The notes: generated by a model not told the origin, from the letters alone. A stretch of 64,000 nucleotides of DNA from a virus (IMGVR_UViG_3300023202_000336:96001-160000), one strand, 5' to 3'; shown: positions 22,859 through 47,594, counted from the first letter of the stretch. Numbers and translations are program-made.

Positions 22859-23404
22859 ATGACCAAGCCATTACCCCTTGATGTAACGAAACTTAGGGAT
22901 TTCGTGATAGAATCAAATACGGTCGAAGGCATCGTCAGAGACGAGAAAACACTTAAGGAGGAGGTAGAAGCTCACGAGCGACTGCTTCGGTGCAAAAAGG
23001 TCGAGGTTCGAGACGTCGTAAGACTCGTGAACACAGTGCAGCCGAACGCTCAGTTCAGGGATCATCAAGATATCCCGGGAGTCTGCGTGATAGCGAGGGT
23101 GCAGCGTCGGCATCATACCGAGACAGTCGTTATGTCCGAACCTCCAGAGAGTGGACCGCTCATCAGGGCCCGTCTACAAGACGTGCTCGATAAAGTCGAG
23201 AGGATGGAGAACGTTTATACGAATCATCTTCTTTATGAAGAGCTTCACCCTTTTACCGACGGGAACGGTCGTTCAGGACGGGCGGTATGGCTATGGCAGA
23301 TGTTGCGTACTGATATACCGTGGGGTTATCGATTCGAGCTACCGTTCCTGCAGAAGTGGTACTATGACTCGTTCTCTATGCTCGCTCAGGAGCCTCGTAT
23401 CTGA
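22859..23404 (+). CDS. fic: Fic-domain protein (AMPylase-type motif)
   Basis: Canonical HPFTDGNGRSGR; AAGGA RBS before ATG 22859. Confidence 0.9.
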   Translation: MTKPLPLDVTKLRDFVIESNTVEGIVRDEKTLKEEVEAHERLLRCKKVEVRDVVRLVNTVQPNAQFRDHQDIPGVCVIARVQRRHHTETVVMSEPPESGPLIRARLQDVLDKVERMENVYTNHLLYEELHPFTDGNGRSGRAVWLWQMLRTDIPWGYRFELPFLQKWYYDSFSMLAQEPRI

Positions 23405-23407
23405 GAC
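23334..23407 (+). repeat. 73-bp direct repeat copy 1 (fic 3' end plus solitary CRISPR repeat C at 23378-23407)
   Basis: 69/73 identical to 23916-23988; repeat C atgctcgctcaggagcctcgtatctgagac is 26/30 to array core and contains the fic stop codon. Confidence 0.9.
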
Positions 23408-23879: not shown

Positions 23880-23907
23880 GGGCGGGACAAGCCCCCGCCC
23901 TCTTTTT
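23880..23907 (+). terminator. Intrinsic terminator
   Basis: gggcggg...cccgccc followed by tcttttt. Confidence 0.7.
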
Positions 23908-23915
23908 AAATCGAG

Positions 23916-23989
23916 TCGAGCTACCGTTCCTGCAGAAGTGGTACTATGACCCGTTCACTATGCTCGCTCAGGAGCTCCGTATCTGAGAT
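23916..23989 (+). repeat. 73-bp direct repeat copy 2, containing solitary CRISPR repeat D (23960-23989)
   Basis: atgctcgctcaggagctccgtatctgagat, 25/30 to array core. Confidence 0.9.
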
Positions 23990-24075: not shown

Positions 24076-24765
24076 ATGATAGATGCGATGGTAGCATATT
24101 ACGGTAGGCAATTTCGAGTACGTAATAAGAACGTGTATAGATACCTTTCAGGAATGCAAAAGGATTATAACGAGAGAGCTCGAACGAGGTGTAGAGGGTT
24201 CGAATACATGCGTTTACGGAATAGAGGGTCAAATTACTGTGGGAACCCATTTTGCCCGACGTGTTGGCACCGTAAACAAGAACATCTTATTAGCTTCATC
24301 ATGGATGCTCGATCAGATTTATTATTTTTGAGAGTAACTGACGAGGTCCACTGGGAAGATACACTTAACAAAAGATATCTCGATAAACTAAAAAGTAGAA
24401 AATATAGACTCATAGCTCAATGTATTTCTTTTGATAACCTTATAGGCGTGATCGATGATATCGGGTATAAAATAGCAGGCATATATAGCGCGAGTAGAGA
24501 GGTTCACGATGAGGATACACCAGGAGTGTCTTATGTACACGAGCAGGCGAATGATCCTTTGTCGGAGGTGATAGGAGCGGTAGAAAAGCTCGAATACGAA
24601 GGAAGCGATAAAGAGAGTCTTATACATGATTGGCAAGATACTATGAAGCACCCGTATAAGTTTCGTAGGCACTCGAGGTTTAACGAGTATATTCGTAGGT
24701 TTGAAACGTTTCGTATTGAACGAAGTTGGGCGAAACGCGGAATTGTACCCCGAGGAGGACGTTGA
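24076..24765 (+). CDS. Hypothetical protein with a CxxxxCPxC zinc motif (229 aa)
   Basis: YCGNPFCPTCWHRK; low-GC segment. Confidence 0.6.
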   Translation: MIDAMVAYYGRQFRVRNKNVYRYLSGMQKDYNERARTRCRGFEYMRLRNRGSNYCGNPFCPTCWHRKQEHLISFIMDARSDLLFLRVTDEVHWEDTLNKRYLDKLKSRKYRLIAQCISFDNLIGVIDDIGYKIAGIYSASREVHDEDTPGVSYVHEQANDPLSEVIGAVEKLEYEGSDKESLIHDWQDTMKHPYKFRRHSRFNEYIRRFETFRIERSWAKRGIVPRGGR

Positions 24766-25859
24766 TGGCTAATCCGGCATTTATAGCTCTCGGAGATCTT
24801 CATCTTGATTTCTATATTTGGCGTAAATTCAAGCAAGTAAAAGGCGATTCGTTTCTAGGATTCACCTCTTTGATAAATAGAGGTATAGCTCTCGGCGTTC
24901 CGGTCGTACTCGTAGGCGACATATTCGATACAGTCGAGCCAGACCCAGCTATTATACGATTTTTTCGAAGAGAGATGGATAGATGCAGGGATAACGACGT
25001 TGAAGTATACGCGATTCAAGGGAATCACGATCGACGCCCGATACCCTGGTACTCCGCAGTCCACGACTGGCCTATTCATATCGGAGACGGTGAGGAAGTA
25101 GATATAAACGGTATCGGATGCGTTGCTTTCGACAATATGACGCGCGATAAAATAGAAGACGCTATAATGAGCCTGAGAGACTGCGTGCCGAAGCCAGACG
25201 TCCTGTTTCTTCATCAAGCGGTGCGTCAGATGCTGTCATTCGAAGGGGCGTGGAATTGCGATCTCGATTGGATACCGGAAGGCATCCCGGCCACTATAAT
25301 GGGTGATATACATAAAGAATGGGAACATAAAATACGCGAAGGACAGAAGGCGTATTATACCGGCTCGAGCCATCCGAGAGAAGCGCCGGAGATAGGTTCG
25401 AAATCATGTATCGTCGTAAATGACGATCTTTCGGTTGAGAGACTTCCAATTGATTATAGGCCTATGACGAAACTCTATGTGAGATCTGATAAAGAACTAG
25501 AGGATCTGCGATCATGGGTCAACGAGGCTGTCGAGTCGAATCCGAAACTTCCTCCGTTCGCCTGGGTTGTGGCGTCTCCGGAGAAAGAGAGCGATATACT
25601 GGAGTTCAGAGAATCCTTCGAGGACGGCTCAGTTATAATCATAACCGAACCTTTCACATTTAAAGATGATATAGAAGATCCAATAGTTGATGATGAGGAA
25701 TGTTTAAGTATAGAAGCGCTACTTTCAAGATTCTTCGATCCAGATGAAGAACCAAAGAGTTATTCGTTTGCGGCTGACCTGCTCGGTCAGTCGAAGAGCG
25801 TTCTCGACGTAATAGGAGAACGCAGGGACCAATTCTATCAGGAGACCGAAGGTTCATGA
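24765..25859 (+). CDS. sbcD: Mre11/SbcD-like metallophosphoesterase nuclease
   Basis: GDLH, VGDIFD, QGNHD, FLHQ, MGDIH, YTGS motifs; GGAGG RBS. Confidence 0.9.
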   Translation: MANPAFIALGDLHLDFYIWRKFKQVKGDSFLGFTSLINRGIALGVPVVLVGDIFDTVEPDPAIIRFFRREMDRCRDNDVEVYAIQGNHDRRPIPWYSAVHDWPIHIGDGEEVDINGIGCVAFDNMTRDKIEDAIMSLRDCVPKPDVLFLHQAVRQMLSFEGAWNCDLDWIPEGIPATIMGDIHKEWEHKIREGQKAYYTGSSHPREAPEIGSKSCIVVNDDLSVERLPIDYRPMTKLYVRSDKELEDLRSWVNEAVESNPKLPPFAWVVASPEKESDILEFRESFEDGSVIIITEPFTFKDDIEDPIVDDEECLSIEALLSRFFDPDEEPKSYSFAADLLGQSKSVLDVIGERRDQFYQETEGS

Positions 25860-27388
25860 CGGACACCGCCGAACTGGTATACGTGATAAGAGATTCGCTG
25901 AAGAGCGATCTGCTGAGAGAGCTGGAAATAGAGGTTGAAGAGGACTCGTTGACTTTTCCGGCTACCGACGATGAAGAAGAGTTCACTATCGAATGCTGGC
26001 GTTTCCCGAAAGAAGAGGTGAGTAAGTTAATTGATTATGGGTACAACTGTACCTCGCTCGCTACTCCTACTAACGAAGACCTTGGGGAAGAGATTCCGGA
26101 GGGGCGAAAGATCGAATTCTTGGCTCTGATGAATCCGGACAATTCCCCCGCACATCACGATGTAGATCCTCGTGAAAGATTCACGGTCGATATCAATAGC
26201 TGGAACAGCCCAGCGCCCGAAAAATTCAAGAGTCGAATCAAGGAGATATTCGAGGAGAGGCTGATGCCGGTAGTTCGAAAGAACATCGGCATTACGGTCC
26301 CTCACGCCGTAAAGGCGTCCACGGTTACTGAGGGAAACACTTTCATCGTCCATGTATGGTCCTCTCCGGTCAGTGCGCCAGACCATGGATATGTTGTTCC
26401 TCCGCAGATGTGGGGAATACCAGTTCCTTGCGTCGATGGTAGTTCCCTTGGGATATGGGCGGACGGTAATCCAGTTATAACAGAGGAAGGTGATGAAGTC
26501 GCTGCTTTCGATGAATATAATCTCTACATCTATTTCGACGCTGTTGAGACCGGCAGTGAAAGTGAGGTTGCTATTCTCGAAAAGATCGCAGAAAGTGTCG
26601 CAACGCAACTTCGTGATGGCCTCGAATACGATCTCGATAAAGTAAAGACTAGTTATATAAAGCAGTGTGGTAAGCGTGTAGAGATGCAGAAGAAAAATCT
26701 TAAGAAGCAGATGACGGATCTCGAAACTAGAGCTACAGAGTTGCAGCAGGAGATGGTGCGTACTCTGCGAGAACATAAGGAAGCTCGAGTACGGGTGGAA
26801 ACGTTCGATAAGCATTCAGATGACATTAACAAGATGCTTTCGGAAGAGTTCGACGCGCTTACCGAGATGCCGAAAATCGAGAGGGTGGAGTACCGTGGTA
26901 ACAGTCTCGCTGTTCATACGAAAACTCTTTTCTGTACCGACCCGAGGACCGATAAGGTACACGAAATCGGGGCTTTCAAGCTGGTTATCGATGAGCTGAG
27001 AGGCGATGTATACTTCTATAACAAAACGAGAAAGATAAATGCGTATAAAGCTCAAATGAACGGTCCCCACCTCTTCCCCGACGGGAGAGCGTGTCTCGGG
27101 AACATGACGAAGGTGTTTCCGCAGCTCATTTCGAGTTATGAGTGGAGCGCGGCTATCAACATGGCGTTGAGTTTTATCGAGCACGTAAATGTGGACGATA
27201 CCGCCGGCGCCCATATCGACATGTGGCCGATAGCTACTGACCCGAGTAAGGAACGTAGAGAAGCTGTGGAAGAGGTTGCTGAAGCCGCAGAGGTTGTAAC
27301 AGAAGGGCATGATGTCCCGGTTACAGAAAACACCGTACCCGCTGCTGCGACGGAAGACGCAGCAGATACCGTAGAAAGAGAGGGATAA
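25856..27388 (+). CDS. Prokaryotic E2-like (UBC fold) protein with N-terminal unknown domain and coiled coil (module 1)
   Basis: C-terminal NGPHLFPDGRACLGN...SFIEHVNVDD matches the HPH-x4-6-C-LG E2 signature; upstream of JAB and E1 genes. Confidence 0.7.
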   Translation: MTDTAELVYVIRDSLKSDLLRELEIEVEEDSLTFPATDDEEEFTIECWRFPKEEVSKLIDYGYNCTSLATPTNEDLGEEIPEGRKIEFLALMNPDNSPAHHDVDPRERFTVDINSWNSPAPEKFKSRIKEIFEERLMPVVRKNIGITVPHAVKASTVTEGNTFIVHVWSSPVSAPDHGYVVPPQMWGIPVPCVDGSSLGIWADGNPVITEEGDEVAAFDEYNLYIYFDAVETGSESEVAILEKIAESVATQLRDGLEYDLDKVKTSYIKQCGKRVEMQKKNLKKQMTDLETRATELQQEMVRTLREHKEARVRVETFDKHSDDINKMLSEEFDALTEMPKIERVEYRGNSLAVHTKTLFCTDPRTDKVHEIGAFKLVIDELRGDVYFYNKTRKINAYKAQMNGPHLFPDGRACLGNMTKVFPQLISSYEWSAAINMALSFIEHVNVDDTAGAHIDMWPIATDPSKERREAVEEVAEAAEVVTEGHDVPVTENTVPAAATEDAADTVEREG

Positions 27389-27393
27389 GATAG

Positions 27394-28062
27394 ATGTTTC
27401 TCCCCCATAGTTTCAAAACAGAAGTAGGGGGCGTTCCCGAGATAATCATCTCTCAGCAGGCGTACTACGACATGTGGACCATCGTCGACAAAGTTACGAC
27501 CGAAGTGGGGTGGATGGGAACAGCTCACCGTAGAGACGACGGCAATCTTTTCATCGAAGAAATTCTCTTGCTGAAGCAGCAGTGCCACTCGACCACTACC
27601 GAGATGTCCCCTGAGGGGTACGCAGATGCTGTTACGCGTCTTGCGATGGAGGACGCCGAGAAAGGAATCAATCCGGAGTCGCCAGACTACAGGGCCAACA
27701 AACTTTTCTTCTGGGGCCATTCTCACGTAAACATGGATACGTCTCCTTCGTCGCAAGACGATGCCCAGATCGAAATATTCAGAGGCGATGGATGTCCGTG
27801 GTTTATCCGCGGCATCTTCAACAAGAAGAAGAGAGCAGAGTTCACTGTATTTTTCTTCGACGCGAATCTGGCGGTCATAGACTGCCCGTGGTCGATAGAG
27901 GCTACCGTCGACGATGGTAGAAGAGAATTCTGGGAGAAGGAAATCAGTGATAAGGTCAGTACTTTCTCGTCGAGCTCGTATTACGGAAGTAACAAGCACA
28001 AAGGCAGCAGCTATACCCCTCGTAGGACGGGTGGTCAGTTCAGTGATCGGTGGAGTAAGTAA
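27394..28062 (+). CDS. JAB/MPN+ metallopeptidase (module 1)
   Basis: TEVGW glutamate plus WGHSHVNMDTSPSSQD (HxH-x7-S-x2-D). Confidence 0.85.
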   Translation: MFLPHSFKTEVGGVPEIIISQQAYYDMWTIVDKVTTEVGWMGTAHRRDDGNLFIEEILLLKQQCHSTTTEMSPEGYADAVTRLAMEDAEKGINPESPDYRANKLFFWGHSHVNMDTSPSSQDDAQIEIFRGDGCPWFIRGIFNKKKRAEFTVFFFDANLAVIDCPWSIEATVDDGRREFWEKEISDKVSTFSSSSYYGSNKHKGSSYTPRRTGGQFSDRWSK

Positions 28063-28769
28063 TGAGCGATACCGTGGATACTCTTCGGCATATCAAGGTA
28101 TTCGACGCCGAGGAGTTCGCGAGCAAGCGGGTCGACGTGATAGGGGCCGGAGCTACCGGCTCCCGAATCGCGCTCGCGTTGGCGAAGCTCGGGATCACGA
28201 ATCTTCACGTGTGGGATTTCGATAAGATAGAGTCTCATAATATAGCTAATCAGGCTTACGGACTTAAAGATGTCGGTAAGCCGAAAGTACGTGCGTTGGA
28301 AGAGCTTATTCACGAGCAGACGGGGATTAGTATCGCTCCTCACGAAGAGGCTGCTACGAAAGAGTCCGATCTGGGAGCATATGTGTTCCTTCTCACGGAT
28401 ACCATGGCTTCGAGAAAAGAGATTTGGAAAGGTGCTTTGAAGTACAAAGCCCACGTAGAACTCGTCGTAGAAACGAGGATGGGAATCAGCGAAGGAAGAG
28501 TCTATTCCGTAGTTCCGTCAGAACCGGCGGAAGTTTCATTTTACGAAAAGACGTTCTGCGACGATGACGAAGCAGAGGAGAGCATGTGCGGTGCTCGGAC
28601 CGTAGTCGGCTCCACCGCTGAGTTGGTGAGCGGCTACGCTGTGTGGGCTTTTCTCAGGTACTATAAGTATAATCTCGAACGAAAAGAAGAGCGACCAGAG
28701 GTAGAAATGCTGTTTTTTGCCAGCCCGGCAATGACTATGACGAACTCGCCGAAACCGGTGCTCGTCTAA
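28062..28769 (+). CDS. ThiF/E1-like ubiquitin-activating enzyme (module 1)
   Basis: VIGAGATGS, WDFDKIESHNIANQ, GKPKV; candidate catalytic Cys in ESMCG; no CxxC zinc pairs. Confidence 0.9.
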   Translation: MSDTVDTLRHIKVFDAEEFASKRVDVIGAGATGSRIALALAKLGITNLHVWDFDKIESHNIANQAYGLKDVGKPKVRALEELIHEQTGISIAPHEEAATKESDLGAYVFLLTDTMASRKEIWKGALKYKAHVELVVETRMGISEGRVYSVVPSEPAEVSFYEKTFCDDDEAEESMCGARTVVGSTAELVSGYAVWAFLRYYKYNLERKEERPEVEMLFFASPAMTMTNSPKPVLV

Positions 28770-28795
28770 CCAACTTCAAAAGGGAAGAACAAACT

Positions 28796-29047
28796 ATGAT
28801 CGACATTTCCATCGGAGCGCCTCCCCGCTCTCCCATGCGCACCGTCACCGTCCCCGACGATGCTTCCGTCGCGGATGCCATCGAAGCGGCTGGGCTCAAC
28901 GGCCCGGAGTATCGGAACTTCGAGATCCGGGCGGGCGGCAACCACATCGATCACCCCGAGCGCGAACGCGCCACTCCGGGGATGACGGTGATCCTGGCCC
29001 CTCAGGTGAAGGGGAACGAGTTCGAAATTCGCATCAAGACACGATAG
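28796..29047 (+). CDS. Ubiquitin-like (beta-grasp) protein with a VKG|NEFEIRIKTR pro-tail (module 1)
   Basis: 83 aa; TVTVPDDASVADAI...EIRAGG...GMTVILAPQVKG pattern; follows the E1 gene. Confidence 0.75.
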   Translation: MIDISIGAPPRSPMRTVTVPDDASVADAIEAAGLNGPEYRNFEIRAGGNHIDHPERERATPGMTVILAPQVKGNEFEIRIKTR

Positions 29048-29060
29048 ATGGCCAGAAATA

Positions 29061-29084
29061 CCGGGGAGGAATCGTTCTCCCCGG
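29061..29084 (+). promoter_or_regulatory. GC-rich hairpin after the Ubl gene (stabilising or partial terminator)
   Basis: ccggggag-gaatcgtt-ctccccgg; no U-tract. Confidence 0.5.
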
Positions 29085-29110
29085 CGTCATCTATGAGGAA
29101 GTGAGATAGC

Positions 29111-31474
29111 ATGATTACGAGAGTAAAAATTAAGAACTTCGGCGTTCATAAGTATATGGATATCGAGTTAGAAAAAGGTATAAACGGGATCATTGGTACG
29201 AATGGTTCCGGTAAATCAACGATACTCGAAGCTATTAGATTCGGATTTACTGGTCAGGTATCTATGTCGGGGAATAAAGACGATAATGTTTCATGGGGCG
29301 AAGATCGCGGTAGTGTAGAGATTTGGTTCACGTACGGTGACACTGATTATCAGCTGAAACGTACTCTTGGAGCTGGTTCTTCTCAGCGTCTGATCACCCC
29401 GGAAGACACTTATCGTCGAAAGACTGAAATCGAGCAGTATTTGAGAGAGCTTCTCGGCGCGAGTGCTGACGCGCTTTTGAACAATATTTTTCCTCCACAA
29501 GGAGATATAGATAAGATACTTTTCGATACGCGTACCCAACGTTTGAAAGAGATGCAGCAAACCGTAGGGCTCCAAAGAGCTGCGGAAGCTGAAAAAGCCC
29601 TCGGTAACGAGATTAACAGTTATATATTAACGATAGGTCTTGACGCACAGATAGAGGCAATCGAAGAAGAATTTGAAAAAGTAGACGAAGAGCTGAAAGA
29701 TGCCACTCGACATAAAAGTTCAGTAGATGACGAGATAGATTGTCTCGAAACCTATAGAGATAAGCTCAACGAGTTCATGATTTCGCAAGAAAATAGGGTC
29801 ATATTGGATGATACCAAAAAGGAAATAGACGGCCTCGAACGAGAGCTCTACAAATCTAATCATGAGCGTCTTGAAATATCCAGTCATATAGAGGCAATGG
29901 CGTATCTTCGTGACTCGAAGAAACCGCTCGTAGAGGATGCTCAGGAGAAACTTCTCGACATCAGGTCGAGAGAGAAACAGATCAAAACGGTCGAATCTTT
30001 GAAAGAGAAACTCGTAAAGATAGATAAAGCGATAGTGGATCTCACAGAGTCGCGAGATGACCTTCTCGATATTATAGAGTCTAAGGAAGATCTCTTACGA
30101 AAGAAGCGTTCCAAGCTCGATCAATTAGTAGACATCGAGAAGGAAAAGATCCCATACCCGGAGACAGAAGAGGAAAAAGAATATAAAGAAGAATATCAGA
30201 ACATCGCAGCTGAGCTCGATGATCTGACGAAAAAGGAGCTGTTTTCGGAAGAGCTGGACGATCTTCAGAAGAAGTTAGAGGGTAGGAATCTCATGCTCGA
30301 GTCTATCGACGAGGGTAGCTGCTACGCATGCGGAGCTCCTGTAGACGACGTTAAGAGGGCCTTTGTTGAGAATGAAATAGAGGAGCTAGAAGGGTCGATT
30401 TCGGAGGTTTCAAAGGCTCTTCGCGCAGAACGCGATGAGAAGGTACGCGAGTTGACCGAGTATCTCTCTGGTCTCGAAAAGAAAATAGAGTATTACATTA
30501 AGACGGCCCGCGAGGTAATATCCTCGAGAAGAAAGAAAATCGAAAAAGAAGTAGAGGAGCTCGAGAATGACTTGAAGATGCTCAGGTCCGAGAAAGAAAC
30601 GCTCGGCGAGCTTCGTGCAAAGAAAACAGCAGTAGAAGAGCAGATATCCAATAACGAAGTAGTAGAGTCTCATGACGTGGATATCGACGAGCTTAAGAGC
30701 ACGGTCGATAAATACGATAAGGTTCTTACGAAATTGAGTGATCTCGAGAGCGAACTTAAGTTAAAGGAACAGAAAATAGAGAATATAGAATCCTCGTTAC
30801 AGCGAGCTAATGAAAGGAAAGAAAAGATAGAAAGTAATACCGTCAGTTTTAGTGATGAGGAAATAGCTGAGGCGAAGGAGAAAGTGGACGTTCTTGCTGA
30901 GAGACTAAATTTTCGTAAGAGCCTCATAGAGGCCCTCACTGGACTGGAAGTGAAATATAAGGAATACTCTTCTTCGCTTAAGAGCCTTCATGAGAAATAT
31001 GAGAGGGAAAAGAAAGATCAAGAATGGGTGAAATTCTGTAAAAAAGTAAGAGACGTGTTTCATGTAAGTGCACTTCCGTCCCTCGCCATGAGAGAATACG
31101 CGACGGTACTGAACAAGCGTGTCGACTACTATCTGTCTACGTGGGAGGCTCATTTTACTATGGAGCTCGACGAAGAGCTGTCATTTATAGCTAAATTCGA
31201 CGATAGAATACATCCGGCGAAGAGGTTGTCGGGTGGACAAAGGATAATTGCGAGTACAAGTTTTAGACTCGCGATGGGTGATACGTTCGCCAAACGCGTC
31301 GGATTGCTAGTTTTAGATGAGCCATCAGTCTATCTAGACAAAGATAACATCATACATCTACAGAGACTTTTACTGAAGTTGAAGGAGCTGGCCGGCGCGA
31401 CCGGTAAACAGATCCTCTTGGTTACACACGAAGAGACATTAAGTGGTTTCTTCGATAACATCATCAGACTGTAA
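29111..31474 (+). CDS. sbcC: Rad50/SbcC-like SMC ATPase
   Basis: Walker A GTNGSGKST, long coiled coil with CYAC zinc hook, LSGGQ signature, Walker B LLVLDEP, VTH. Confidence 0.92.
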   Translation: MITRVKIKNFGVHKYMDIELEKGINGIIGTNGSGKSTILEAIRFGFTGQVSMSGNKDDNVSWGEDRGSVEIWFTYGDTDYQLKRTLGAGSSQRLITPEDTYRRKTEIEQYLRELLGASADALLNNIFPPQGDIDKILFDTRTQRLKEMQQTVGLQRAAEAEKALGNEINSYILTIGLDAQIEAIEEEFEKVDEELKDATRHKSSVDDEIDCLETYRDKLNEFMISQENRVILDDTKKEIDGLERELYKSNHERLEISSHIEAMAYLRDSKKPLVEDAQEKLLDIRSREKQIKTVESLKEKLVKIDKAIVDLTESRDDLLDIIESKEDLLRKKRSKLDQLVDIEKEKIPYPETEEEKEYKEEYQNIAAELDDLTKKELFSEELDDLQKKLEGRNLMLESIDEGSCYACGAPVDDVKRAFVENEIEELEGSISEVSKALRAERDEKVRELTEYLSGLEKKIEYYIKTAREVISSRRKKIEKEVEELENDLKMLRSEKETLGELRAKKTAVEEQISNNEVVESHDVDIDELKSTVDKYDKVLTKLSDLESELKLKEQKIENIESSLQRANERKEKIESNTVSFSDEEIAEAKEKVDVLAERLNFRKSLIEALTGLEVKYKEYSSSLKSLHEKYEREKKDQEWVKFCKKVRDVFHVSALPSLAMREYATVLNKRVDYYLSTWEAHFTMELDEELSFIAKFDDRIHPAKRLSGGQRIIASTSFRLAMGDTFAKRVGLLVLDEPSVYLDKDNIIHLQRLLLKLKELAGATGKQILLVTHEETLSGFFDNIIRL

Positions 31475-31488
31475 AAAAGGGTCACATA

Positions 31489-32226
31489 ATGCCCAGAATC
31501 ACTTTCATCAACGACGACGGCGCCGGATTCGGATCCCCGCGCGAGGTCCCCTACGGCACCACCATGGCCGGTCTCTTCCGCGAGATCTGGCCGACGGGTA
31601 ATCCGGAGCACTTCCGGTTTACTCTCAACGGTCGCTCCGCTACCGGTGACGATCGTCTCTCGGATGGCGATCGTGTCGCCATGATCGCCGCTACCGACGA
31701 GGCGCGTTACCCGGGTTACGGCCAGCGCCTCGGCGGTACCGTCGGTGGTTATGGTGCGGTCGACCGCGATGGTGGCGACCGCGTCGCTTTCATCGCTCCG
31801 CACGGCACCGGTTTCGCCGATTGGTACTACATCCGTCCTGGTACCACTCTCGAGCAGTTCGTTTATGAGCGTCTCGGTCGTCATTTCGACGTTCGCAATC
31901 ACGTCATCAGCGTCGATGGCGTTCAGGGTCCCCCGGCCTCGCAGGTTCTCCGGGCGAACAACCATATCTCGGTCACTCCGCGCAACATCAAGGCTGCGTC
32001 GGATGTCGAGATCACCCTCATCAAGGGTTCCGGTGCCGGTTATGCGGCTCGTCGGCGTATCCCCCAGGGGACCACGCTCGGCGAGCTGTTTCACCGGGAG
32101 ACCGAGGGTGACGATCCGGAGCGGACTCACATCATCAAGCTCAACGGTGAGACCGCCACCCGCGATCGGGTTCTCGAGAACGGCGACTCGGTGACGATCT
32201 CTCCGAAGAACGTCAAAGGCGCCTGA
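31489..32226 (+). CDS. Multi-ubiquitin protein, three tandem Ubl domains ending in NVKG|A (module 2)
   Basis: Three repeats of GxG...GTT[ML]..LF...[LV][ND]G...L..[GN][DN].[VI]; Gly-rich linker after domain 1. Confidence 0.8.
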   Translation: MPRITFINDDGAGFGSPREVPYGTTMAGLFREIWPTGNPEHFRFTLNGRSATGDDRLSDGDRVAMIAATDEARYPGYGQRLGGTVGGYGAVDRDGGDRVAFIAPHGTGFADWYYIRPGTTLEQFVYERLGRHFDVRNHVISVDGVQGPPASQVLRANNHISVTPRNIKAASDVEITLIKGSGAGYAARRRIPQGTTLGELFHRETEGDDPERTHIIKLNGETATRDRVLENGDSVTISPKNVKGA

Positions 32227-32233
32227 GCAGTTA

Positions 32234-32270
32234 GAGGGGAGGCAGCATTCGTCTGCCTCCCCTCGTTTTT
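32234..32270 (+). terminator. Intrinsic terminator after the multi-Ubl gene
   Basis: gaggggaggcag-cattcgt-ctgcctcccctc followed by gttttt. Confidence 0.85.
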
Positions 32271-32328
32271 GTTTACCCCATCTCACCACGATCGAGAGAT
32301 CGAGAGATCGAAAACCATAAGGAGCGTT

Positions 32329-34401
32329 ATGGCCTCAATCGAGGATACTCTGCAAGGAACGTTCGTTCCTACTCCTCATCAGATCCAGAAGTACAAGTTC
32401 GTAGGTGATGATCTCTCCATATACCCGTGCGAAGGGCTCGAAGAGCGTAGGTTCCTAAGGCTTTTGATGCTCGCTGCAAGATTCTATAGTATTCTCTGTG
32501 AGAACGAAGGTAAGACGGCTCTCAATAGAAACAGGCAGTTGATACAGTCAGAGATTGAAGGATTCTCGCGATCGATCAATAATCTCCGAAGATCAGTTGG
32601 AGAGTTAAATCAAAAGAGTTCCGTGAAATTCATGAAGGAAGTTCAGAAGACTTCTGGATACGTGGAAGCTATGGAAAAGACGATAGGAGAAATAGTAGAC
32701 CGTGGAGTAGAGAAGTCGTCTCTTTTCGATTTTATGACGATCTATAAAGACTTCTACCATATGAGTGTCGGTGACGTTTACGAAGGGGTTTACCCCATTT
32801 TCTACGAAGATATCAAAAAAGACAAAAAGTTGGCAGTTATAGGTAAACCAGAGGCGGAAGTTTTTAATGACAAGATCGTAATACTTACAAAGCCGGCATC
32901 TATTAAGCACAATAAGAGAATTATTGACTTCGGAAACTATTTTATCACGTACTCTTTCCAGGTGTTGAACGATGCTTTACGGTCTGGAAACTCGGCTGCA
33001 ATTCATAGCGGTTTGCGCCTCTCATCGCCGTCTCCACGTTACCCAAAAGACGATGACGGGGATAATATACACCCTCACATATCCGGTAACGGTATGTGCA
33101 CAGGAGAGGCAGGTTACCGTATCTTGAGCTTTCTCCAGCAGGGCGTACTTTCAGGGGTTTTCCAACTCGTAAACAGCATCCTGAATACACTCGGATCAGG
33201 TCCCTACAGAGCGATCAGCGCCTGGGATCCTCGCCCGTCGTGTGCGGGGTGTGGCGAGATTATCGGTGAAGATGACGAAAGGGTCAATTGTTCTTCGAAT
33301 GGTGCAGCGCTTCACAAGTCGTGCGCATATGAAGACGAGGATGGGAACTTTCACGAACATCGCTTCGTCAAGACTTGTACCTTCTGTTTCAACGAGGGTG
33401 TTTTCGATGACAGGACTACGCGTGGAGGCAATGTCGGATGTCCTCTGTGCATTGAGGAGCTTTCGCGAGTCGAAAATCTCGTCAACGAAGGAAAGTTCCC
33501 TTGCCCGAACTGTAATCACGTTCATGAAGGCGAAGACGCGTTCGATCATAAGATAGAGCTCGGAGAGAAGGACTACGCGTGTACCAGATGTGTGAGCTGG
33601 GTCAGAGAGCCCAACGAGGACGGCGTCGGCACCTGTGAAGTAGAAGGAATAGGTCGCGTCACTACAAGTCGCATGATAACCCAGAGGAGTCGCCGCTCTT
33701 TTCCGCGTATTCCGAATATCGTCGTCTGCAGCTGCGGATCGAGAGTAGCCGAAGAAAATATCAGAAGAGACGATTTCGCAATGTCCAACTGTTGCCAGGT
33801 ATGCGACCCCGATAATCTCGGAATGTCTCAGTCGTTCCTTGCGCAGGTGCCTATCATGGAAGCGTGGCTGTGGAACTTTTACGGAACGCATATAGGTGAG
33901 ATGACGACGCAGTATTGCCGCCTCTATAGTTTCGTCGGCGAAGACGTTTCTGCCGAACGGGCTGCGAGCGTGGTCAAGAGATTGCGATGCTGGGAGATTA
34001 ACCTGAGTAGAACCATGTGCTACGTCGATCGCCATACCTCTCTGAGAGAGAAGGCCATATTCTGGGAAACCGTTTTAGCCGATACCGGCTTCATCATCCT
34101 GACCGCAGACGAGGAAAGCATCCGTATCCATGACGAAATCCAAAGATTCCGAACAGAAGACGCGACGCGCGCCGGTAACGCGCCGGAAGGCGTCCTCGAA
34201 AGAGAAAGAGAAAGGATCCAGGAAACCCTCCGGCGGCTCAGAGACTTCTTCTCCGGAAGAAGAGCCGCAAGAGATGAAGAAGGAAGAGAAGAAGAAGGAA
34301 GAGAAGAAGACGGAAGAGAAAGAACCGACGAAGATCGAGAAGAAATCCGAGCAGGCGAAGCAGGAGTCGTCGAGGCCGTCGATACCGGTGACGGCGCCTG
34401 A
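32329..34401 (+). CDS. Prokaryotic E2-like domain fused to multiple Cys/His zinc fingers and a charged tail (module 2)
   Basis: NIHPHISGNGMCTGE E2 signature; then CAGC...C...HKSC, CTFC/CPLC, CPNC/CTRC, CSC/CCQVC; AAGGAG RBS before ATG 32329. Confidence 0.7.
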   Translation: MASIEDTLQGTFVPTPHQIQKYKFVGDDLSIYPCEGLEERRFLRLLMLAARFYSILCENEGKTALNRNRQLIQSEIEGFSRSINNLRRSVGELNQKSSVKFMKEVQKTSGYVEAMEKTIGEIVDRGVEKSSLFDFMTIYKDFYHMSVGDVYEGVYPIFYEDIKKDKKLAVIGKPEAEVFNDKIVILTKPASIKHNKRIIDFGNYFITYSFQVLNDALRSGNSAAIHSGLRLSSPSPRYPKDDDGDNIHPHISGNGMCTGEAGYRILSFLQQGVLSGVFQLVNSILNTLGSGPYRAISAWDPRPSCAGCGEIIGEDDERVNCSSNGAALHKSCAYEDEDGNFHEHRFVKTCTFCFNEGVFDDRTTRGGNVGCPLCIEELSRVENLVNEGKFPCPNCNHVHEGEDAFDHKIELGEKDYACTRCVSWVREPNEDGVGTCEVEGIGRVTTSRMITQRSRRSFPRIPNIVVCSCGSRVAEENIRRDDFAMSNCCQVCDPDNLGMSQSFLAQVPIMEAWLWNFYGTHIGEMTTQYCRLYSFVGEDVSAERAASVVKRLRCWEINLSRTMCYVDRHTSLREKAIFWETVLADTGFIILTADEESIRIHDEIQRFRTEDATRAGNAPEGVLERERERIQETLRRLRDFFSGRRAARDEEGREEEGREEDGRERTDEDREEIRAGEAGVVEAVDTGDGA
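34276..34320. repeat. Tandem 15-bp repeat x3 (encodes EEGRE)
   Basis: gaagaaggaagagaa, gaagaaggaagagaa, gaagacggaagagaa. Confidence 0.9.
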
Positions 34402-36094
34402 AGAGAAGAGAAAAGAGGCAGAGGATCTTCCAGCCTCTCCCGTGAGGCCTATACTCGAGTATTCCGAGGGAGTCGACGCCCTGTATTTCACGCCGTATGC
34501 TTGGGCGAAGCTCCAGTTCATGTGTCACTCCGTCGATACCGAAATCGGCGGAATGGCACTTACGGCAGCAGACAATCCGTTTCTCATCGAGGATATAGGT
34601 ATCGTCAAGCAGAAGGCGAGTGCAGCTTTCGTTGATTTCGATGACGAGGCGTTGAACGATTTCATGACCGAGCAGTTCGTAAAGCACGATCGTCAGCCGA
34701 TCAACTGCATGAGGATCTGGATACATACGCATCCGCATGGATGCACGAAGCCTTCGGGACAGGACGAAAATACGTTCAGAGACGCTTTCGGAAGCGCAGA
34801 CTGGGCAGTGATGTTCATTCTTGCGAAATCAGGAGAGGTCTACGCGCGTATGCGGGCTGATACTGCGCACGGCGTTTCGATCAACAAGCATCTCGACGTA
34901 GATATAGACTGGTCCAAACCTTTCGAGGGTTCGGACCACGACAGCTGGCTCGAAGAGATCCGTGAGAAGGTCACTATCAGAACGTATTCGACTCCAGCAA
35001 AAGTAACGAGGTTCCCTGGTACGAGAAGCCGCGGCGTAAACGCGCTGATAAGCGATAAGAGATCGAGCTCGAACTCCACGAAGTCTTACATCGATGATGA
35101 TTATATTTTAGATAATGAGTGGTACGGCGGTGGATACGGTTACGGAGACGGTTACGGCGGTCAGAGAAGGTATTCCCGCGATAGTACGACGCACGGGAGG
35201 AAGGTGGAGATTCGCCTGTATCCTGAACACGTCTGCTACGATATGCCGAACCAGCTTTATATCAATCTGCTGAAGATGCCCCGTAAGAATTCGTTCTTCA
35301 TTCATTCGGATAAGAAGGTTCTCGAGAAACTCGGGGCGGTGATGGTTCCGTACAAGAAGCACGAGGGCAAAGAGACCGCTAAGTTCCTCTGCTATATCAA
35401 GAGTCATGGCAAGAAGTATACAGTCGATTCGAGAGCACTCACTATGATGGTCGACCACCCCGTTCCCGTCCTCAAAGCTATTTTGGAAGAGCGTCACGAA
35501 GCCGAACAGAAGCTTCTGAAGATAGCGGATGGCAGGAACGAGAACATGTACGGTTTTACCGATATCTTCGGTAAACGGTGTCATGTAATCGTTCCTTGGT
35601 TCTGCCTGAACAGGAGGCTGATCTGGCTTTCGGAGGACGAGTATGTGACGATGGAAGAGATAAACGACGGTATTACTTCGCTTGAAGAGTCACTCGATAA
35701 AGAGGAAGATGATACGAAGGAGCTTACGACAGTGGGCAGCGAGGACGATAAGGGTGACGAACAGTTTTTGGATAAGGAAATCGAAGATTTGGAGACCGGG
35801 TTCTTCTTGGAAGAGAAGGAGCTGGCGGACGGTAAGCGTAAGATAAATCTCAGTTTCGATCACTTCTTCTCGGAAGCGTGGGATAACGTAATAGCGTACC
35901 TTAAGGCAGCGAACTATTTCGGAGCGAGTGAGAAGGACATCGAGACGAGACTCTTCAAGTACGAAATGGAAGCCAAAGCAGATGTAGAGAGAGAAGCTTA
36001 CGAGGCGGTGAATAAGCTGGTGAGGTTGAAGGGTTACGACGTAGAAGCTCTCAAAGCCGTGATGATCAGTGACCAGAAGGAGGAAGAGGAATGA
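34388..36094 (+). CDS. JAB/MPN+ metallopeptidase with a long C-terminal extension (module 2)
   Basis: DTEIGG glutamate plus WIHTHPHGCTKPSGQD; start set at GTG 34388 (track ORF begins at 34130 inside the E2 tail). Confidence 0.8.
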   Translation: MTAPEEKRKEAEDLPASPVRPILEYSEGVDALYFTPYAWAKLQFMCHSVDTEIGGMALTAADNPFLIEDIGIVKQKASAAFVDFDDEALNDFMTEQFVKHDRQPINCMRIWIHTHPHGCTKPSGQDENTFRDAFGSADWAVMFILAKSGEVYARMRADTAHGVSINKHLDVDIDWSKPFEGSDHDSWLEEIREKVTIRTYSTPAKVTRFPGTRSRGVNALISDKRSSSNSTKSYIDDDYILDNEWYGGGYGYGDGYGGQRRYSRDSTTHGRKVEIRLYPEHVCYDMPNQLYINLLKMPRKNSFFIHSDKKVLEKLGAVMVPYKKHEGKETAKFLCYIKSHGKKYTVDSRALTMMVDHPVPVLKAILEERHEAEQKLLKIADGRNENMYGFTDIFGKRCHVIVPWFCLNRRLIWLSEDEYVTMEEINDGITSLEESLDKEEDDTKELTTVGSEDDKGDEQFLDKEIEDLETGFFLEEKELADGKRKINLSFDHFFSEAWDNVIAYLKAANYFGASEKDIETRLFKYEMEAKADVEREAYEAVNKLVRLKGYDVEALKAVMISDQKEEEE

Positions 36095-36768
36095 GCGAAG
36101 AGCAGACCACTGTAGAAGAGCGCTATAGCCGACAGGCATCTCTGATACCTCCCGATAAAATCGCTACTTTGACGGTATGCGTGATCGGTGTCGGCGCTAT
36201 CGGGAGGCAAGCTGCACTTCAGCTTGCCGCCTCAGGTGTCGGACGTCTGAAACTGATAGATCACGACGATATCGAAAGGGTGAATCTCGGTCCTCAGGGC
36301 TATTACGAGTCGGACATCGGGAAGAAGAAAGTCGAAGCGACAGCTGACGTGGCGCGATCGAACAACCCGGAGATCAGCATCGAGGCGGTAGATCGACGTT
36401 ACAATCCTGTAGACGGCGATTGTGATGCGGTCTTCATGTGCGTCGATAGCATCGAGACTCGAAGGTTCATCTATGAATCTTTGATGGATCGGAAGCCGTT
36501 CCTTGTCGACGGCAGGATGGCCGCTGAGACGCTGAGAATCGTGACCGCCTACGATGATTCGACTTACGAGGACTACGAAGAGACACTCTTTTCAGATGAT
36601 GAAGCTTTCGAGGGAGAGTGTACTGCAAGAAGCACTATCTATTCGGCGAACATCGCCGCAGGACTGATGGTTGCGCAGTTCGCAAAGTGGGTTAGAGAGA
36701 TGGAGATGATTATCAAGCCTGACTTCATTCTTAATCTTCTGAGTGGAGAGCTATTCGAAACGGAGTAA
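36091..36768 (+). CDS. ThiF/E1-like ubiquitin-activating enzyme (module 2)
   Basis: VIGVGAIG, DHDDIERVNLGPQ, GKKKV, VDGRM; candidate catalytic Cys in GECTARST. Confidence 0.9.
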   Translation: MSEEQTTVEERYSRQASLIPPDKIATLTVCVIGVGAIGRQAALQLAASGVGRLKLIDHDDIERVNLGPQGYYESDIGKKKVEATADVARSNNPEISIEAVDRRYNPVDGDCDAVFMCVDSIETRRFIYESLMDRKPFLVDGRMAAETLRIVTAYDDSTYEDYEETLFSDDEAFEGECTARSTIYSANIAAGLMVAQFAKWVREMEMIIKPDFILNLLSGELFETE

Positions 36769-36769
36769 A

Positions 36770-38236
36770 ATGGCGTATCTCGCGTATATCGGTAGAGCTT
36801 TGGCGCTATACCCAGCGAAACTGGGTGAGCTTTTCGAAGAGCACTGTACGGTAGAAAAAGTAGTTAGCGAAGAGGTATGGAAAACCAGTAGGTCGACCGG
36901 TCGACGGTATCGTAAAGTCGAGCGGATAGGCAAAAAGGTAGAGATGTACTGGTACGCCGAAGACGATGGAAAAGAAGTTTTCTGTGCCTATTCAGGGTAC
37001 GGTGCTCATATCGAAAAGACGCTAAAGCAACGAAAGATTCCATACACCACCGAGAACCGTGTCGATCACGGTCTTCCGAAACCAAATCTTGAAGCGATCA
37101 GACATATAGAATGGCGGCCACGGCAAAAAGAAGTCGTGGCCGCCATTCTGGCTTACAACGGGGGTGCTATCGATTGCCCGACGGCGTTCGGTAAAACCTT
37201 TATAGTTAAGCAGATCGCAAAAGTTTATCCGGAGTCCCCTATTATCGTAACTGTTCCGTCCGTGGATATCGCAAATGACATCTACGATGGATTACGTTTC
37301 GATATACCGGGGGTGGGAATGGTCGGCGACGGAAAGAATAAACCAGATAGGGTTACAGTTGCGGTAAGCCAGTCGTTACACAAGTGCGATAGGCACGCGA
37401 GTTTGGTTCTTGTAGACGAGTGTCATGCGATTCTCACGACGAATTTCATAAAGAAGCTTCATAGATTCTATCGGGCAAAGTTCTTCGGATTTACCGCTTC
37501 TCCGGAAGGTAGAAGCGACAAGGCAGACAGGTTTTTAGAGGCTTTATTCGGGGAGGTATTAGTCCGTGTTTCCTATCAAGAGTGCGTAGAGAGCGGAAAC
37601 GTTGCTCCTATTAAAGTACACGCTTACACCGTAGAAGACGGGCCTGACGTTTCAGCAATAGAGAATCATACGAAGGCAGATCGCCTCGGTATATGGACGA
37701 ACCGTACAAGAAACGAATTCATTGCGCGTGTAGTAAGAAAAGTAGAAAAGGATGTTGGCGACAACGAACAGATTCTGATTATGGTCGATAAGACCGAGCA
37801 CGCCTATGCTCTTGGGCAGTATCTCGACGACTACACCGTTGTTTCAGCCGAACCCGATCCGAGACGAGTTGCCCAAATGCGACGAAACGGGTCGATGTTA
37901 CGGGCGCAAAAGATATGTACTAAGAAGTCGCGGGGATATTATAAACGTATGTTCGAGCTCGGGAGACTCAAAAAGGTTATCGCAACGAAGGTGTGGAAAC
38001 AGGGAGTCGATTTTCAGGACCTTTCGGTTCTCGTACGCGCTGATGCCGTTTCAACTCCGATACAGTCTACACAGATCCCGGGAAGACTTAGTAGACTCGG
38101 ACGAGAAAAAGAGAAAGATTACGGCATACTTATAGATTTCTTCGATAAGTTTAGTGGGAATTTGTACGCGCGTTCACTAAATAGATTCAAGGTGTATCGC
38201 AGCAAAGGGTGGAGTATCGAGAACAAGACATGTTAA
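36770..38236 (+). CDS. Superfamily 2 DExH helicase (UvsW/XPB-like)
   Basis: CPTAFGKT, VDECH, FTASP, QIPGRLSR. Confidence 0.88.
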   Translation: MAYLAYIGRALALYPAKLGELFEEHCTVEKVVSEEVWKTSRSTGRRYRKVERIGKKVEMYWYAEDDGKEVFCAYSGYGAHIEKTLKQRKIPYTTENRVDHGLPKPNLEAIRHIEWRPRQKEVVAAILAYNGGAIDCPTAFGKTFIVKQIAKVYPESPIIVTVPSVDIANDIYDGLRFDIPGVGMVGDGKNKPDRVTVAVSQSLHKCDRHASLVLVDECHAILTTNFIKKLHRFYRAKFFGFTASPEGRSDKADRFLEALFGEVLVRVSYQECVESGNVAPIKVHAYTVEDGPDVSAIENHTKADRLGIWTNRTRNEFIARVVRKVEKDVGDNEQILIMVDKTEHAYALGQYLDDYTVVSAEPDPRRVAQMRRNGSMLRAQKICTKKSRGYYKRMFELGRLKKVIATKVWKQGVDFQDLSVLVRADAVSTPIQSTQIPGRLSRLGREKEKDYGILIDFFDKFSGNLYARSLNRFKVYRSKGWSIENKTC

Positions 38237-38781
38237 CTTTCGATGAGATTATAGATGAGGAGGGGAATCACCGAGTTCCTGATCCAGAGCTCGTAAAGCT
38301 TGCAAACGAGATATTAGATGCTTTCAAAGAGATAGCCCCAGAGATACCGATCCCCCGTAAAAGTAAGATGCAGTTCTATAAAGCTGCTGCGATATGTAAA
38401 GAACACGGAATGGCGCCGATCGACTTCGTACGGTCGCGAGTGCACGATATGAGAACTTCTGGTATGAAGTGGGCAACAGCGATCGCCTGTGATAGATTCG
38501 GTACGGTGGAGTCCGACCACAACATATTGTGTATCGAAGATATTAGGCACTATAAATCGCAGGTTGACCTTTTCCGCCGGCTCTCAAGTATCTACGGCTC
38601 TCAGCTCACAGTAGAGGATCGGTCGAACGCGTTTACTCCGCTTTTCCGTTGTATGCTCGCGTATACCTATGGGAACGAGGAGGTTTTTAAGCAGTACAAA
38701 GAGGCTGCGAAGGAAGAGTTGAAGATTGTTTCGGTGGCGAAAGAGATATTTAAGGAGTTAGCGAAGGTGCTTGATGACTAA
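38230..38781 (+). CDS. Hypothetical replication-cluster protein
   Basis: Overlaps both neighbouring genes. Confidence 0.65.
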   Translation: MLTFDEIIDEEGNHRVPDPELVKLANEILDAFKEIAPEIPIPRKSKMQFYKAAAICKEHGMAPIDFVRSRVHDMRTSGMKWATAIACDRFGTVESDHNILCIEDIRHYKSQVDLFRRLSSIYGSQLTVEDRSNAFTPLFRCMLAYTYGNEEVFKQYKEAAKEELKIVSVAKEIFKELAKVLDD

Positions 38782-47450: not shown

Positions 47451-47594
47451 ATGAAGATGCACCGGACACAGATAAGCCTCCCGCCCGTCCTCTTCGGTTG
47501 GCTCAAAGCCGAAGCTGAAAGAAAAGGAATCAGCATCGCTGAACTCATTCGCCGCGTCTTGGATCGTGAATATGAAGATCAGCAGAAGCAGTAA
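47451..47594 (+). CDS. Ribbon-helix-helix (CopG-like) protein, 47 aa, absent from the ORF track
   Basis: MKMHRTQISLPPVLFGWLKAEAERKGISIAELIRRVLDREYEDQQKQ; overlaps the tnpB start; TTGACA upstream. Confidence 0.75.
   Translation: MKMHRTQISLPPVLFGWLKAEAERKGISIAELIRRVLDREYEDQQKQ

Follow-up and report, generated by a model that had tools for sequence, protein, structure and literature searches.

A 64,000-nt stretch of viral DNA carries two four-gene modules for the conjugation of ubiquitin-like proteins (Ubls). This stretch, here called the window, comprises bases 96001-160000 of IMGVR_UViG_3300023202_000336, a virus record of 180,134 bp that has direct terminal repeats and is rated complete; positions below are counted from its first base. 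Module 1 (M1; 25856-29047) encodes E2-1, JAB-1, E1-1 and Ubl-1, and Module 2 (M2; 31489-36768) encodes tri-Ubl, E2-2, JAB-2 and E1-2. We interpreted the modules as two separate and complete Ubl conjugation cascades of anciently diverged types, which work for the phage and are probably orthogonal, and we put the probability of this whole statement at about 0.55. That the modules form two functional conjugation cascades is, taken by itself, likely from their sequences. That they act to the benefit of the phage is, taken by itself, evenly poised.

A first-pass annotation of the same DNA had described two complete four-part kits in a phage replication operon. Both parts of this description held. 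An E1, a JAB, a Ubl and an E2 with the UBC fold were each found twice, and SbcD, SbcC, helicase, DnaB-like ATPase and PolA genes lie around them (Table 1). The motifs that it had listed for the enzymes were also intact: GxGxxG and a single Cys, with no CxxC zinc pairs, in both E1s; HPH or GPH followed by Cys in both E2s; and HxH-x7-SxxD in both JABs.

The two E1s are the only ThiF-family matches in the whole 180,134-bp record. One Cys, which closes an acidic crossover loop, was invariant across 16 aligned E1s of both types. CxxC pairs were present in none of the 16, and the short length was common to all of them. The best NCBIfam ThiF scores, 67 and 81 bits, lay far short of the 159 bits required, and E1-1 fell under every NCBIfam cut-off. 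The Rossmann part of both proteins matched the PADLOC 'E1-E2' models (1e-16) and Cap2 chains (3.5e-6).

Neither E2 matched a family in Pfam, PHROGs, NCBIfam or PADLOC. The UQ_con and Prok-E2_A-E profiles matched no window protein and none of the 56 M2-type and 7 M1-type family members, and PDB sequence searches returned nothing for E2-1 and only chance-level rows for E2-2. AlphaFold models of the two E2 cores, built from family alignments, were confident, with predicted local distance difference test (pLDDT) values of 82.7 and 88.4. Whether these regions fold as UBC domains was a point that the first-pass annotation had singled out for checking. Both models adopted the UBC fold, and only E2 enzymes headed the lists of structure matches. 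The ESM Atlas gave Prok-E2_D (template modelling (TM) score 0.57) and UQ_con (TM 0.48) as structural leads, which were the sole link to those families. In BFVD, uncharacterised phage proteins shared the E2-like fold (best E 8.3e-4, TM 0.65 by query).

An exhaustive search found 190 relatives of E2-2, which share an invariant H-P-H, a Cys seven positions further along, one Gly, one Trp and the first of the CxxC pairs; a word-indexed protein search had returned only E2-2 itself. Six relatives of E2-1 were found, with P-H-x7-C-L-G invariant. The motif P-H...C-x-G was invariant in all 56 M2-type and 7 M1-type members, with a spacing of six to seven residues between His and Cys (P-H-x6-7-C-x-G). 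BLASTP did not connect E2-1 with E2-2, and profile comparison did (hhalign 95.4%, E 1.9e-8). Judged by their profiles, the two E2 families are homologous.

Outside their cores the two E2s differ in layout. E2-1 consists of an N-terminal domain of unknown fold, a coiled coil (about residues 255-335), the UBC core (residues 335-465; 26858-27250) and an acidic tail. E2-2 has a helical N-terminus, the UBC core (32686-33258), about four zinc-ribbon-like Cys clusters (33241-33804), a C-terminal domain and an acidic low-complexity tail. In the long form of E2-2, 15 cysteines behind the UBC core were invariant, which is sufficient for about four zinc sites. A few E2-2 relatives gave weak matches to IBR/RING-like models, and from such sequence likeness a built-in E3-like part in E2-2 is possible.

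JAB-1 had no family match in Pfam, PHROGs, NCBIfam or PADLOC. It aligned with JAB-2 over 190 residues that include the metal site (BLASTP, 24% identity, E 1e-5). In 14 aligned JAB homologues, from phages and bacteria, the Glu (E..G), W-x-H-x-H and P-S-x-x-D were invariant. A PDB sequence search with the JAB-2 domain found nothing. JAB-2 begins with a K/E-rich head that overlaps the E2-2 tail, continues with the JAB domain and ends with about 350 residues of unknown fold.

The overlap between the E2-2 and JAB-2 genes is long. Two reading frames stay open for 272 nt (34130-34401), one for the acidic tail of E2-2 and one for the K/E-rich head of JAB-2, and the stretch spans a purine-rich 15-bp tandem repeat (34269-34320). 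A similarly long two-frame overlap was present in three syntenic sister phages (L006, L010 and L011; loci used for comparison carry L numbers). A frameshift in this interval might produce an E2-JAB fusion, and the start given for JAB-2 is provisional.

Ubl-1 had no match in Pfam, PHROGs, NCBIfam or PADLOC. Ten homologous units were found in other loci, and Gly73 was invariant in all 11, followed by extensions of 1-18 residues. In tri-Ubl only the last of the three beta-grasp repeats ends in Gly (V-K-G244-A, 32212-32220); the second ends in I-K-A-A. Ubls of both types from 10 loci all ended in [K/E/A/D]-G and 1-18 non-conserved residues. The first-pass annotation had both Ubls ending in VKG and one further residue. 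This is correct for tri-Ubl (VKG-A), and in Ubl-1 the VKG is followed by ten residues that JAB-1 presumably cleaves off. Type II Bil has this arrangement as well, and there the residues behind the Ubl Gly are taken off by the JAB before adenylation (10.1101/2023.09.26.559546).

The number of Ubl units varies. The M2 Ubl is triple in the window and single in the sister phages. Two other phages encode a di-Ubl (L013:12237-12647 and L015:5026-5448), each unit of which ends in I-K-G plus N or A. By analogy, these di-Ubls look like a polyubiquitin precursor that is cut into monomers. The hairpin behind the tri-Ubl gene (Table 1) came from a scan in which the total of terminator-like sites was no higher than chance expectation. 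It may be a terminator or attenuator that would keep Ubl transcripts above enzyme transcripts.

The pairing of E1 and Ubl was modelled as a complex of two E1-1 chains and Ubl-1 residues 1-73. The model scored 0.66, versus 0.00 for the best of three controls. Among solved complexes, 58 of 80 reached the mark set for this score; among mismatched pairs, 2 of 110 did. The runs agreed in at least 88% of contacts, and the pLDDT of the partner was at least 86 (87). The Ubl-1 tail (residues 68-73) lay in the active site and contacted E1-1 residues 111-115, 138-146 and 166-172. These stretches hold three invariant residues, Asp113, Arg139 and Arg146, as well as the crossover loop with the invariant Cys176 at its end. 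As a model, this complex supports binding between E1-1 and Ubl-1.

The chemistry that we infer would be the same in both modules. The JAB would trim the residues behind the Ubl Gly, ten in Ubl-1 and one in tri-Ubl. The minimal E1, probably a homodimer, would then adenylate the Gly and take the Ubl as a thioester on its single invariant Cys. From there the Ubl would move to the Cys of the UBC-fold E2, in P-H-x6-7-C-x-G, and the E2 would hand it to a lysine of the target. Since no E3 is encoded, the target would be picked by the E2's own extra domains. The candidate selectors are the N-terminal domain and coiled coil in E2-1, and the approximately four zinc-binding Cys clusters and C-terminal domain in E2-2. 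The JAB may also undo the tagging.

The first-pass annotation had called the modules duplicated, and this did not hold. E1-1 and E1-2 shared 31% identity (E 4e-21), and Ubl-1 and tri-Ubl gave no significant pairwise BLAST match. In a maximum-likelihood tree the E1s fell into two clades, M1 and M2, separated at 100/98 support. E1-1 was nearer to outside E1s than to E1-2, with 42% identity to a cyanobacterial E1 and up to 55% to those of other phages. Each type also occurs alone. M1-type sets without M2 were found in three other large phages (L013, L014 and L015, the last with two M1-type E2/JAB/E1 sets) as well as on one contig (L004) from a cyanobacterial assembly. Sets of the M2 type without M1 were found in a second phage lineage (L008, L019 and L020), which has two E2 paralogues, and in L009, a 381-kb bacterial contig where the set lies near conjugation genes, beside DUF87/TraG-like genes. 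From the split in the E1 tree and the separate occurrence of each type in phages and bacteria, we concluded that on their sequences M1 and M2 are two anciently diverged lineages living together, not a copy made inside this phage.

The origin of L019 required a separate interpretation. It is a 177-kb contig of an assembly labelled Promethearchaeota, with a five-gene M2-type set in the order Ubl-E2-E2'-JAB-E1. This set lies among phage-like genes (Peptidase_S74, SpoU, NUDIX), and its order is that of the phage-like contigs L008 and L020. L019 is probably a phage contig inside an Asgard bin.

Within M2, the E1-2 of the window clustered with the E1s of L008 and L009 and not with its positional counterparts in the sister phages (95/89). 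From the sequences, this suggests mosaic exchange within M2 at a fixed locus. E2-2, unlike E1-2 in its grouping, is of the long form found in the sister phages.

From 24.7 to 44.4 kb every gene is on the + strand and abuts or overlaps its neighbours. The order is SbcD/Mre11-like, the four genes of M1, SbcC/Rad50-like, the four genes of M2, superfamily-2 helicase, DnaB-like ATPase and PolA. The overlaps are of 4 nt at SbcD/E2-1 and at JAB-2/E1-2, and of 26 nt at E1-2/helicase. The module genes are translationally coupled to the SbcD, SbcC, helicase and polymerase genes.

The order SbcD, E2, JAB, E1, Ubl, SbcC, Ubl, E2, JAB, E1, helicase recurred in at least three sister phages (L006/L007, L010 and L011). 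The E2 protein of L006/L007 was seen on at least 24 contigs, and L010 and L011 are genomes from IMG/VR, 179 and 191 kb long. The contig L003 is only 11.9 kb long and breaks off within its SbcC gene, and it shows the M1 half of the layout; the SbcD-like neighbour stands beside M1 there and in L006, L010 and L011. Protein identity across the syntenic sister phages was only 20-55%. The stability of the layout at this level of identity, together with the 4-nt and 26-nt overlaps, argues for a place of both modules among the core genes, expressed together with the replication functions.

Further relatives were sought in several ways. A locus search with the alignment of the long-form E2-2 (A6) returned only two IMG/VR contigs that were already known, and locus searches with single E2 sequences gave no confirmed relatives. 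Among the INPHARED phages there was no match by megablast with the whole region or by tblastn with E2-2.

Table 1. Positions in the window of the module genes, their motifs and the surrounding genes
Feature	Position	Strand	Evidence or remark
SbcD/Mre11-like phosphoesterase	24726-25859	+	Pfam Metallophos 1.8e-7; PHROG metallo-phosphoesterase
E2-1, 510 aa	25856-27388	+	start overlaps SbcD stop by 4 nt
E2-1 motif G-P-H-x7-C-L-G	27062-27100	+	Cys413
JAB-1, JAMM/MPN+ metalloprotease, 222 aa	27394-28062	+	BLASTP to JAB-2 E 1e-5
JAB-1 zinc site	Glu37 within 27499-27513; H-x-H-x7-S-xx-D 27718-27759	+	HSH, residues 109-122
E1-1, minimal ThiF-type adenylating enzyme, 235 aa	28062-28769	+	Pfam ThiF 4.7e-21, residues 15-227
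E1-1 motifs	GxGxxG 28143-28160; invariant Cys176 within 28584-28598	+	no CxxC pair
Ubl-1, 83 aa	28796-29047	+	beta-grasp-like body up to V-K-G73 (29006-29014), then 10 residues (29015-29044)
SbcC/Rad50-like SMC ATPase	29111-31474	+	Pfam AAA_23 1.2e-22, SMC_N; PHROG SbcC-like 1.2e-40; between M1 and M2
tri-Ubl, 245 aa	31489-32226	+	three beta-grasp repeats by repeat alignment; Pfam ThiS 4.9e-10 in 2 stretches
12-bp GC-rich hairpin and T-run	32234-32264	+	between tri-Ubl gene and E2-2; best-scoring terminator-like site in 22-39 kb
E2-2, 690 aa from ATG 32329 or 710 aa from TTG 32269	32329-34401	+	
E2-2 motif H-P-H-x6-C-x-G	33070-33105	+	Cys277 (710-aa numbering)
JAB-2, up to 654 aa	34130-36094	+	PADLOC JAB 5.9e-6; Pfam Prok-JAB 0.0049, under its cut-off
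JAB-2 domain	about 34430-35020; Glu138 within 34538-34552; H-x-H-x7-S-xx-D 34724-34765	+	residues about 115-290
E1-2, minimal ThiF-type, 225 aa	36091-36768	+	Pfam ThiF 5.5e-30, residues 22-201
E1-2 motifs	GxGxxG 36187-36204; invariant Cys177 within 36616-36630	+	no CxxC pair
Superfamily-2 helicase	36743-38236	+	Pfam ResIII, Helicase_C; overlaps 3' end of E1-2
DnaB-like (KaiC-type) ATPase	38771-40207	+	downstream of helicase
Family-A DNA polymerase (PolA), N-terminal UDG-like domain	41267-44353	+	DNA_pol_A

The SbcC-like gene between the modules also matched LmuB of the Lamassu system (PADLOC 3.6e-35). This assignment was dropped in view of the Mre11-like partner, the PHROG SbcC match (1.2e-40) and the replication-gene context. 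A small gene immediately upstream of the block is flanked by the two copies of a 79-nt direct repeat (23328-23406 and 23910-23988; 94% identical), and a second strong hairpin terminator lies at 23880-23900. On the other side, 3' of the polymerase gene, a TnpB/Cas12f-like protein is encoded at 47566-48654 (Cas12f1-like TNB domain 6.9e-18); L008 carries one too.

The modules had been likened in the first-pass annotation to bacterial systems of the Bil and Bub types, and their defining features were compared. Bil corresponds to operon classes 6d/6c of the 2006 survey by Iyer et al. (PMC1779556; Chambers et al., 10.1101/2023.09.26.559546; Hor et al., 10.1101/2023.09.04.556158). As in Bil, the Ubl, E2, JAB and E1 of both modules are four separate genes of one operon, the Ubls have one to three beta-grasp domains, and their conserved C-terminal Gly is followed by a few extra residues (here a sequence feature only). 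In both, no E3 is encoded and the E2 is thought to select the target. The Bil order, Ubl-E2-JAB-E1, is kept by M2 and by the M1 relative L004, whereas M1 in the window has E2-JAB-E1-Ubl.

The enzymes themselves depart from Bil. The Bil E1 is a multidomain protein (IAD-AAD-CYS), whereas a single ThiF domain covers nearly all of the 225-235 aa here. BilB has a conserved His after the Cys and no HPN-type His, whereas here P-H comes before the Cys. Neither the 56 M2-type nor the 7 M1-type E2s had an invariant His behind the Cys; the Gly two residues after the Cys was invariant. No Bil chain came up in PDB sequence searches with E2-1, E2-2, E1-1, E1-2 or the JAB-2 domain, a result that leaves room for distant kinship. 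Bil also serves bacteria as a defence, in which a tail fibre of the phage is tagged, and the present genes are in a phage replication block.

Bub, Type I/II (operon class 6e/DUF6527; Ye et al., PMC11601596), uses Tyr/Ser oxyesters with no catalytic Cys, unlike the E1s (C176/C177) and E2s (C413/C277) here with their invariant Cys. It is built of fusions (Ubl-E2, JAB-E1 and E2-E1) and a DUF6527 serine protease (PMC11601596), whereas all genes here are separate and a Pfam scan found no DUF6527 (PF20137) in the ten proteins of 24.7-36.8 kb. The E1, E2 and JAB domains belong to the same superfamilies as those of type II CBASS Cap2/Cap3 and of 6A-MBL. Cap2, however, is an E2-E1 fusion that conjugates a CD-NTase and not a Ubl, and here the E2 and the E1 come from different genes, PADLOC gave no match to a model of a CD-NTase or an effector, and no MBL gene is present. 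Relative to eukaryotic and archaeal UBC E2s, the Asn of HPN is His, and the M1 type has no conserved first His. The E2s here also carry large fused extra domains, and the E1 is minimal, with no UFD or separate Cys domain.

The Bil/Bub label was therefore not retained. Since Bil, Bub and Cap2 each fail to fit, we regard the modules as further types of prokaryotic E1-E2-JAB-Ubl systems, set apart by the minimal size of the E1 and by a P-H...C E2 to which large domains are fused.

Short E1s are known from other tailed viruses. The Asgard virus 'Nidhogg' has three ThiF/E1-like genes, which were read as hijacking the host ubiquitin system (10.1101/2021.07.29.454249). ThiF genes were also on record for crAss-like, Fipvunavirus and Xanthomonas jumbo phages. 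Among cultured phages, the crAss-like ones, the FpV4 group of Flavobacterium phages and the Xanthomonas jumbo phages carry short E1s annotated as ThiF, which were 29-34% identical to E1-1 and E1-2. In Bacteroides phage DAC17 (L018) and Flavobacterium phage FpV4 (L017) a JAB gene is directly upstream of the E1 gene. The label 'thiamine biosynthesis protein ThiF' on these proteins is probably wrong. In Xanthomonas phage PhiXhv-12 (L016) the E1 gene is preceded by a gene for an 893-aa unknown protein and followed by a 70-aa open reading frame. The E2 profiles built here found no E2 beside the E1 of PhiXhv-12, FpV4 or DAC17, a result that does not show absence there. In contrast to Nidhogg and these phages, for which no E2 or Ubl has been reported, both kits here are complete.

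For phages, the 2006 survey listed only lambda-type TAPI/TAPK tail proteins (PMC1779556). No description of complete phage-encoded kits or of the twin layout was found in the Bil and Bub papers, that survey, a jumbo-phage overview (PMC7824862) or recent reviews, in a search largely outside subscription journals. New here is the conserved pairing of two kit types around SbcC.

The modules might also conjugate Ubls as cargo for defence. Like Bil, they would then tag proteins of competing phages or mobile elements, exclude superinfection and so guard the infected cell for the phage already in it. The characterised bacterial E1/E2/JAB(/Ubl) systems with a demonstrated role, Bil and type II CBASS, defend against phages, and the same is predicted for Bub from its genomic context (PMC11601596; 10.1101/2023.09.04.556158). 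The presence of an M2-type set beside DUF87/TraG-like genes in the 381-kb bacterial contig and of an M1-type set in a cyanobacterial contig would agree with this, and exchange of the kind seen for E1-2, which groups with another phage lineage and a bacterial contig (95/89), is typical of conflict genes. However, defence genes carried by phages are usually located in accessory regions that vary, whereas these modules are inside a replication/recombination block, are coupled to SbcD and helicase, and have kept their position at 20-55% identity; this region of the record also gave no sign of lysogeny. We consider defence cargo rather unlikely. Still less probable is that the modules act in deconjugation or as decoys, with the JABs stripping host Ubl or CD-NTase conjugates (counter-Bil or counter-CBASS) and E1, E2 and Ubl jamming host enzymes. 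The JAB beside a short E1 in cultured crAss-like and Flavobacterium phages, where our profiles found no E2, would suit such a role. The invariance of the E1 and E2 Cys, the adenylation-site residues and the Ubl Gly across distant relatives, however, indicates purifying selection on the forward pathway, and makes this role very unlikely. The Ubls could finally be sulfur carriers like ThiS/MoaD, trimmed by the JAB and activated by the E1 as thiocarboxylates for thio-modification of tRNA, cofactors or DNA. There are known sulfur-transfer operons that combine JAB, ThiS/MoaD and E1 (Iyer et al. 2006, PMC1779556, rows 3-4), tri-Ubl matched Pfam ThiS, and both E1s matched ThiF models. The E1 scores were nonetheless far under the equivalog cut-offs for ThiF/MoeB/UbaA, for example 67-81 bits where 159 are required, and the CxxC zinc pairs are missing. 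The first-pass annotation had seen no sulfur-pathway genes nearby, and the whole phage genome proved to have no ThiG, MoaE, rhodanese or PP-loop thiolase. Sulfur pathways also make no use of an E2 of UBC fold with an invariant Cys, such as each module retains. On these grounds sulfur transfer is unlikely, to the point that we give it almost no weight.

Some points weigh against our interpretation of two pro-phage cascades. The M1-type modules of L013, L014, L015 and the cyanobacterial L004 are not beside SbcCD, and so the link of M1 to recombination holds in this lineage only. A Pfam scan of the M1-type neighbours in L013-L015 gave no common theme, with a sigma factor, a ribonucleotide reductase and otherwise unknowns. 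The M2-type set near conjugation genes in L009 fits mobile defence cargo equally well. The E1-Ubl model may have passed through its likeness to E1-Ubl complexes that are already solved. The cascades, with their chemistry and targets, are predictions from sequence and models. The pro-phage interpretation comes from the coupling to the SbcD, SbcC, helicase and polymerase genes and from the same place of the modules in the sister phages. According to it, the cascades would be core early or middle functions that tag host or phage proteins, in takeover, counter-defence or the control of recombination and replication.

In the literature searched, bacterial Ubl conjugation has been described only as anti-phage defence (Bil, type II CBASS and probably Bub). 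A complete, virus-owned kit in a core replication block points to tagging from the side of the virus, and with two kits of different types, separate target sets are likely. We tentatively propose that tailed phages run their own Ubl signalling, in which two orthogonal cascades are switched on with the replication and recombination genes, each with an E2 whose own domains recognise the targets. To the advantage of the phage, they would tag host proteins of defence or repair, or else SbcCD and the replisome of the phage itself. Such signalling would mirror the Bil defence of bacteria, and would be the prokaryotic-virus counterpart to the exploitation of ubiquitination by eukaryotic viruses. The minimal E1, together with a eukaryote-like H-P-x...C E2 family that is in no profile library, bears on how the E1-E2 relay evolved and spread. 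The two small and probably orthogonal natural sets of E1, E2, Ubl and protease could become tools for site-specific protein ligation. If the proposal is true, the P-H...C E2 and minimal E1 would represent a separate, old branch of the ubiquitin machinery that has been spread by viruses.

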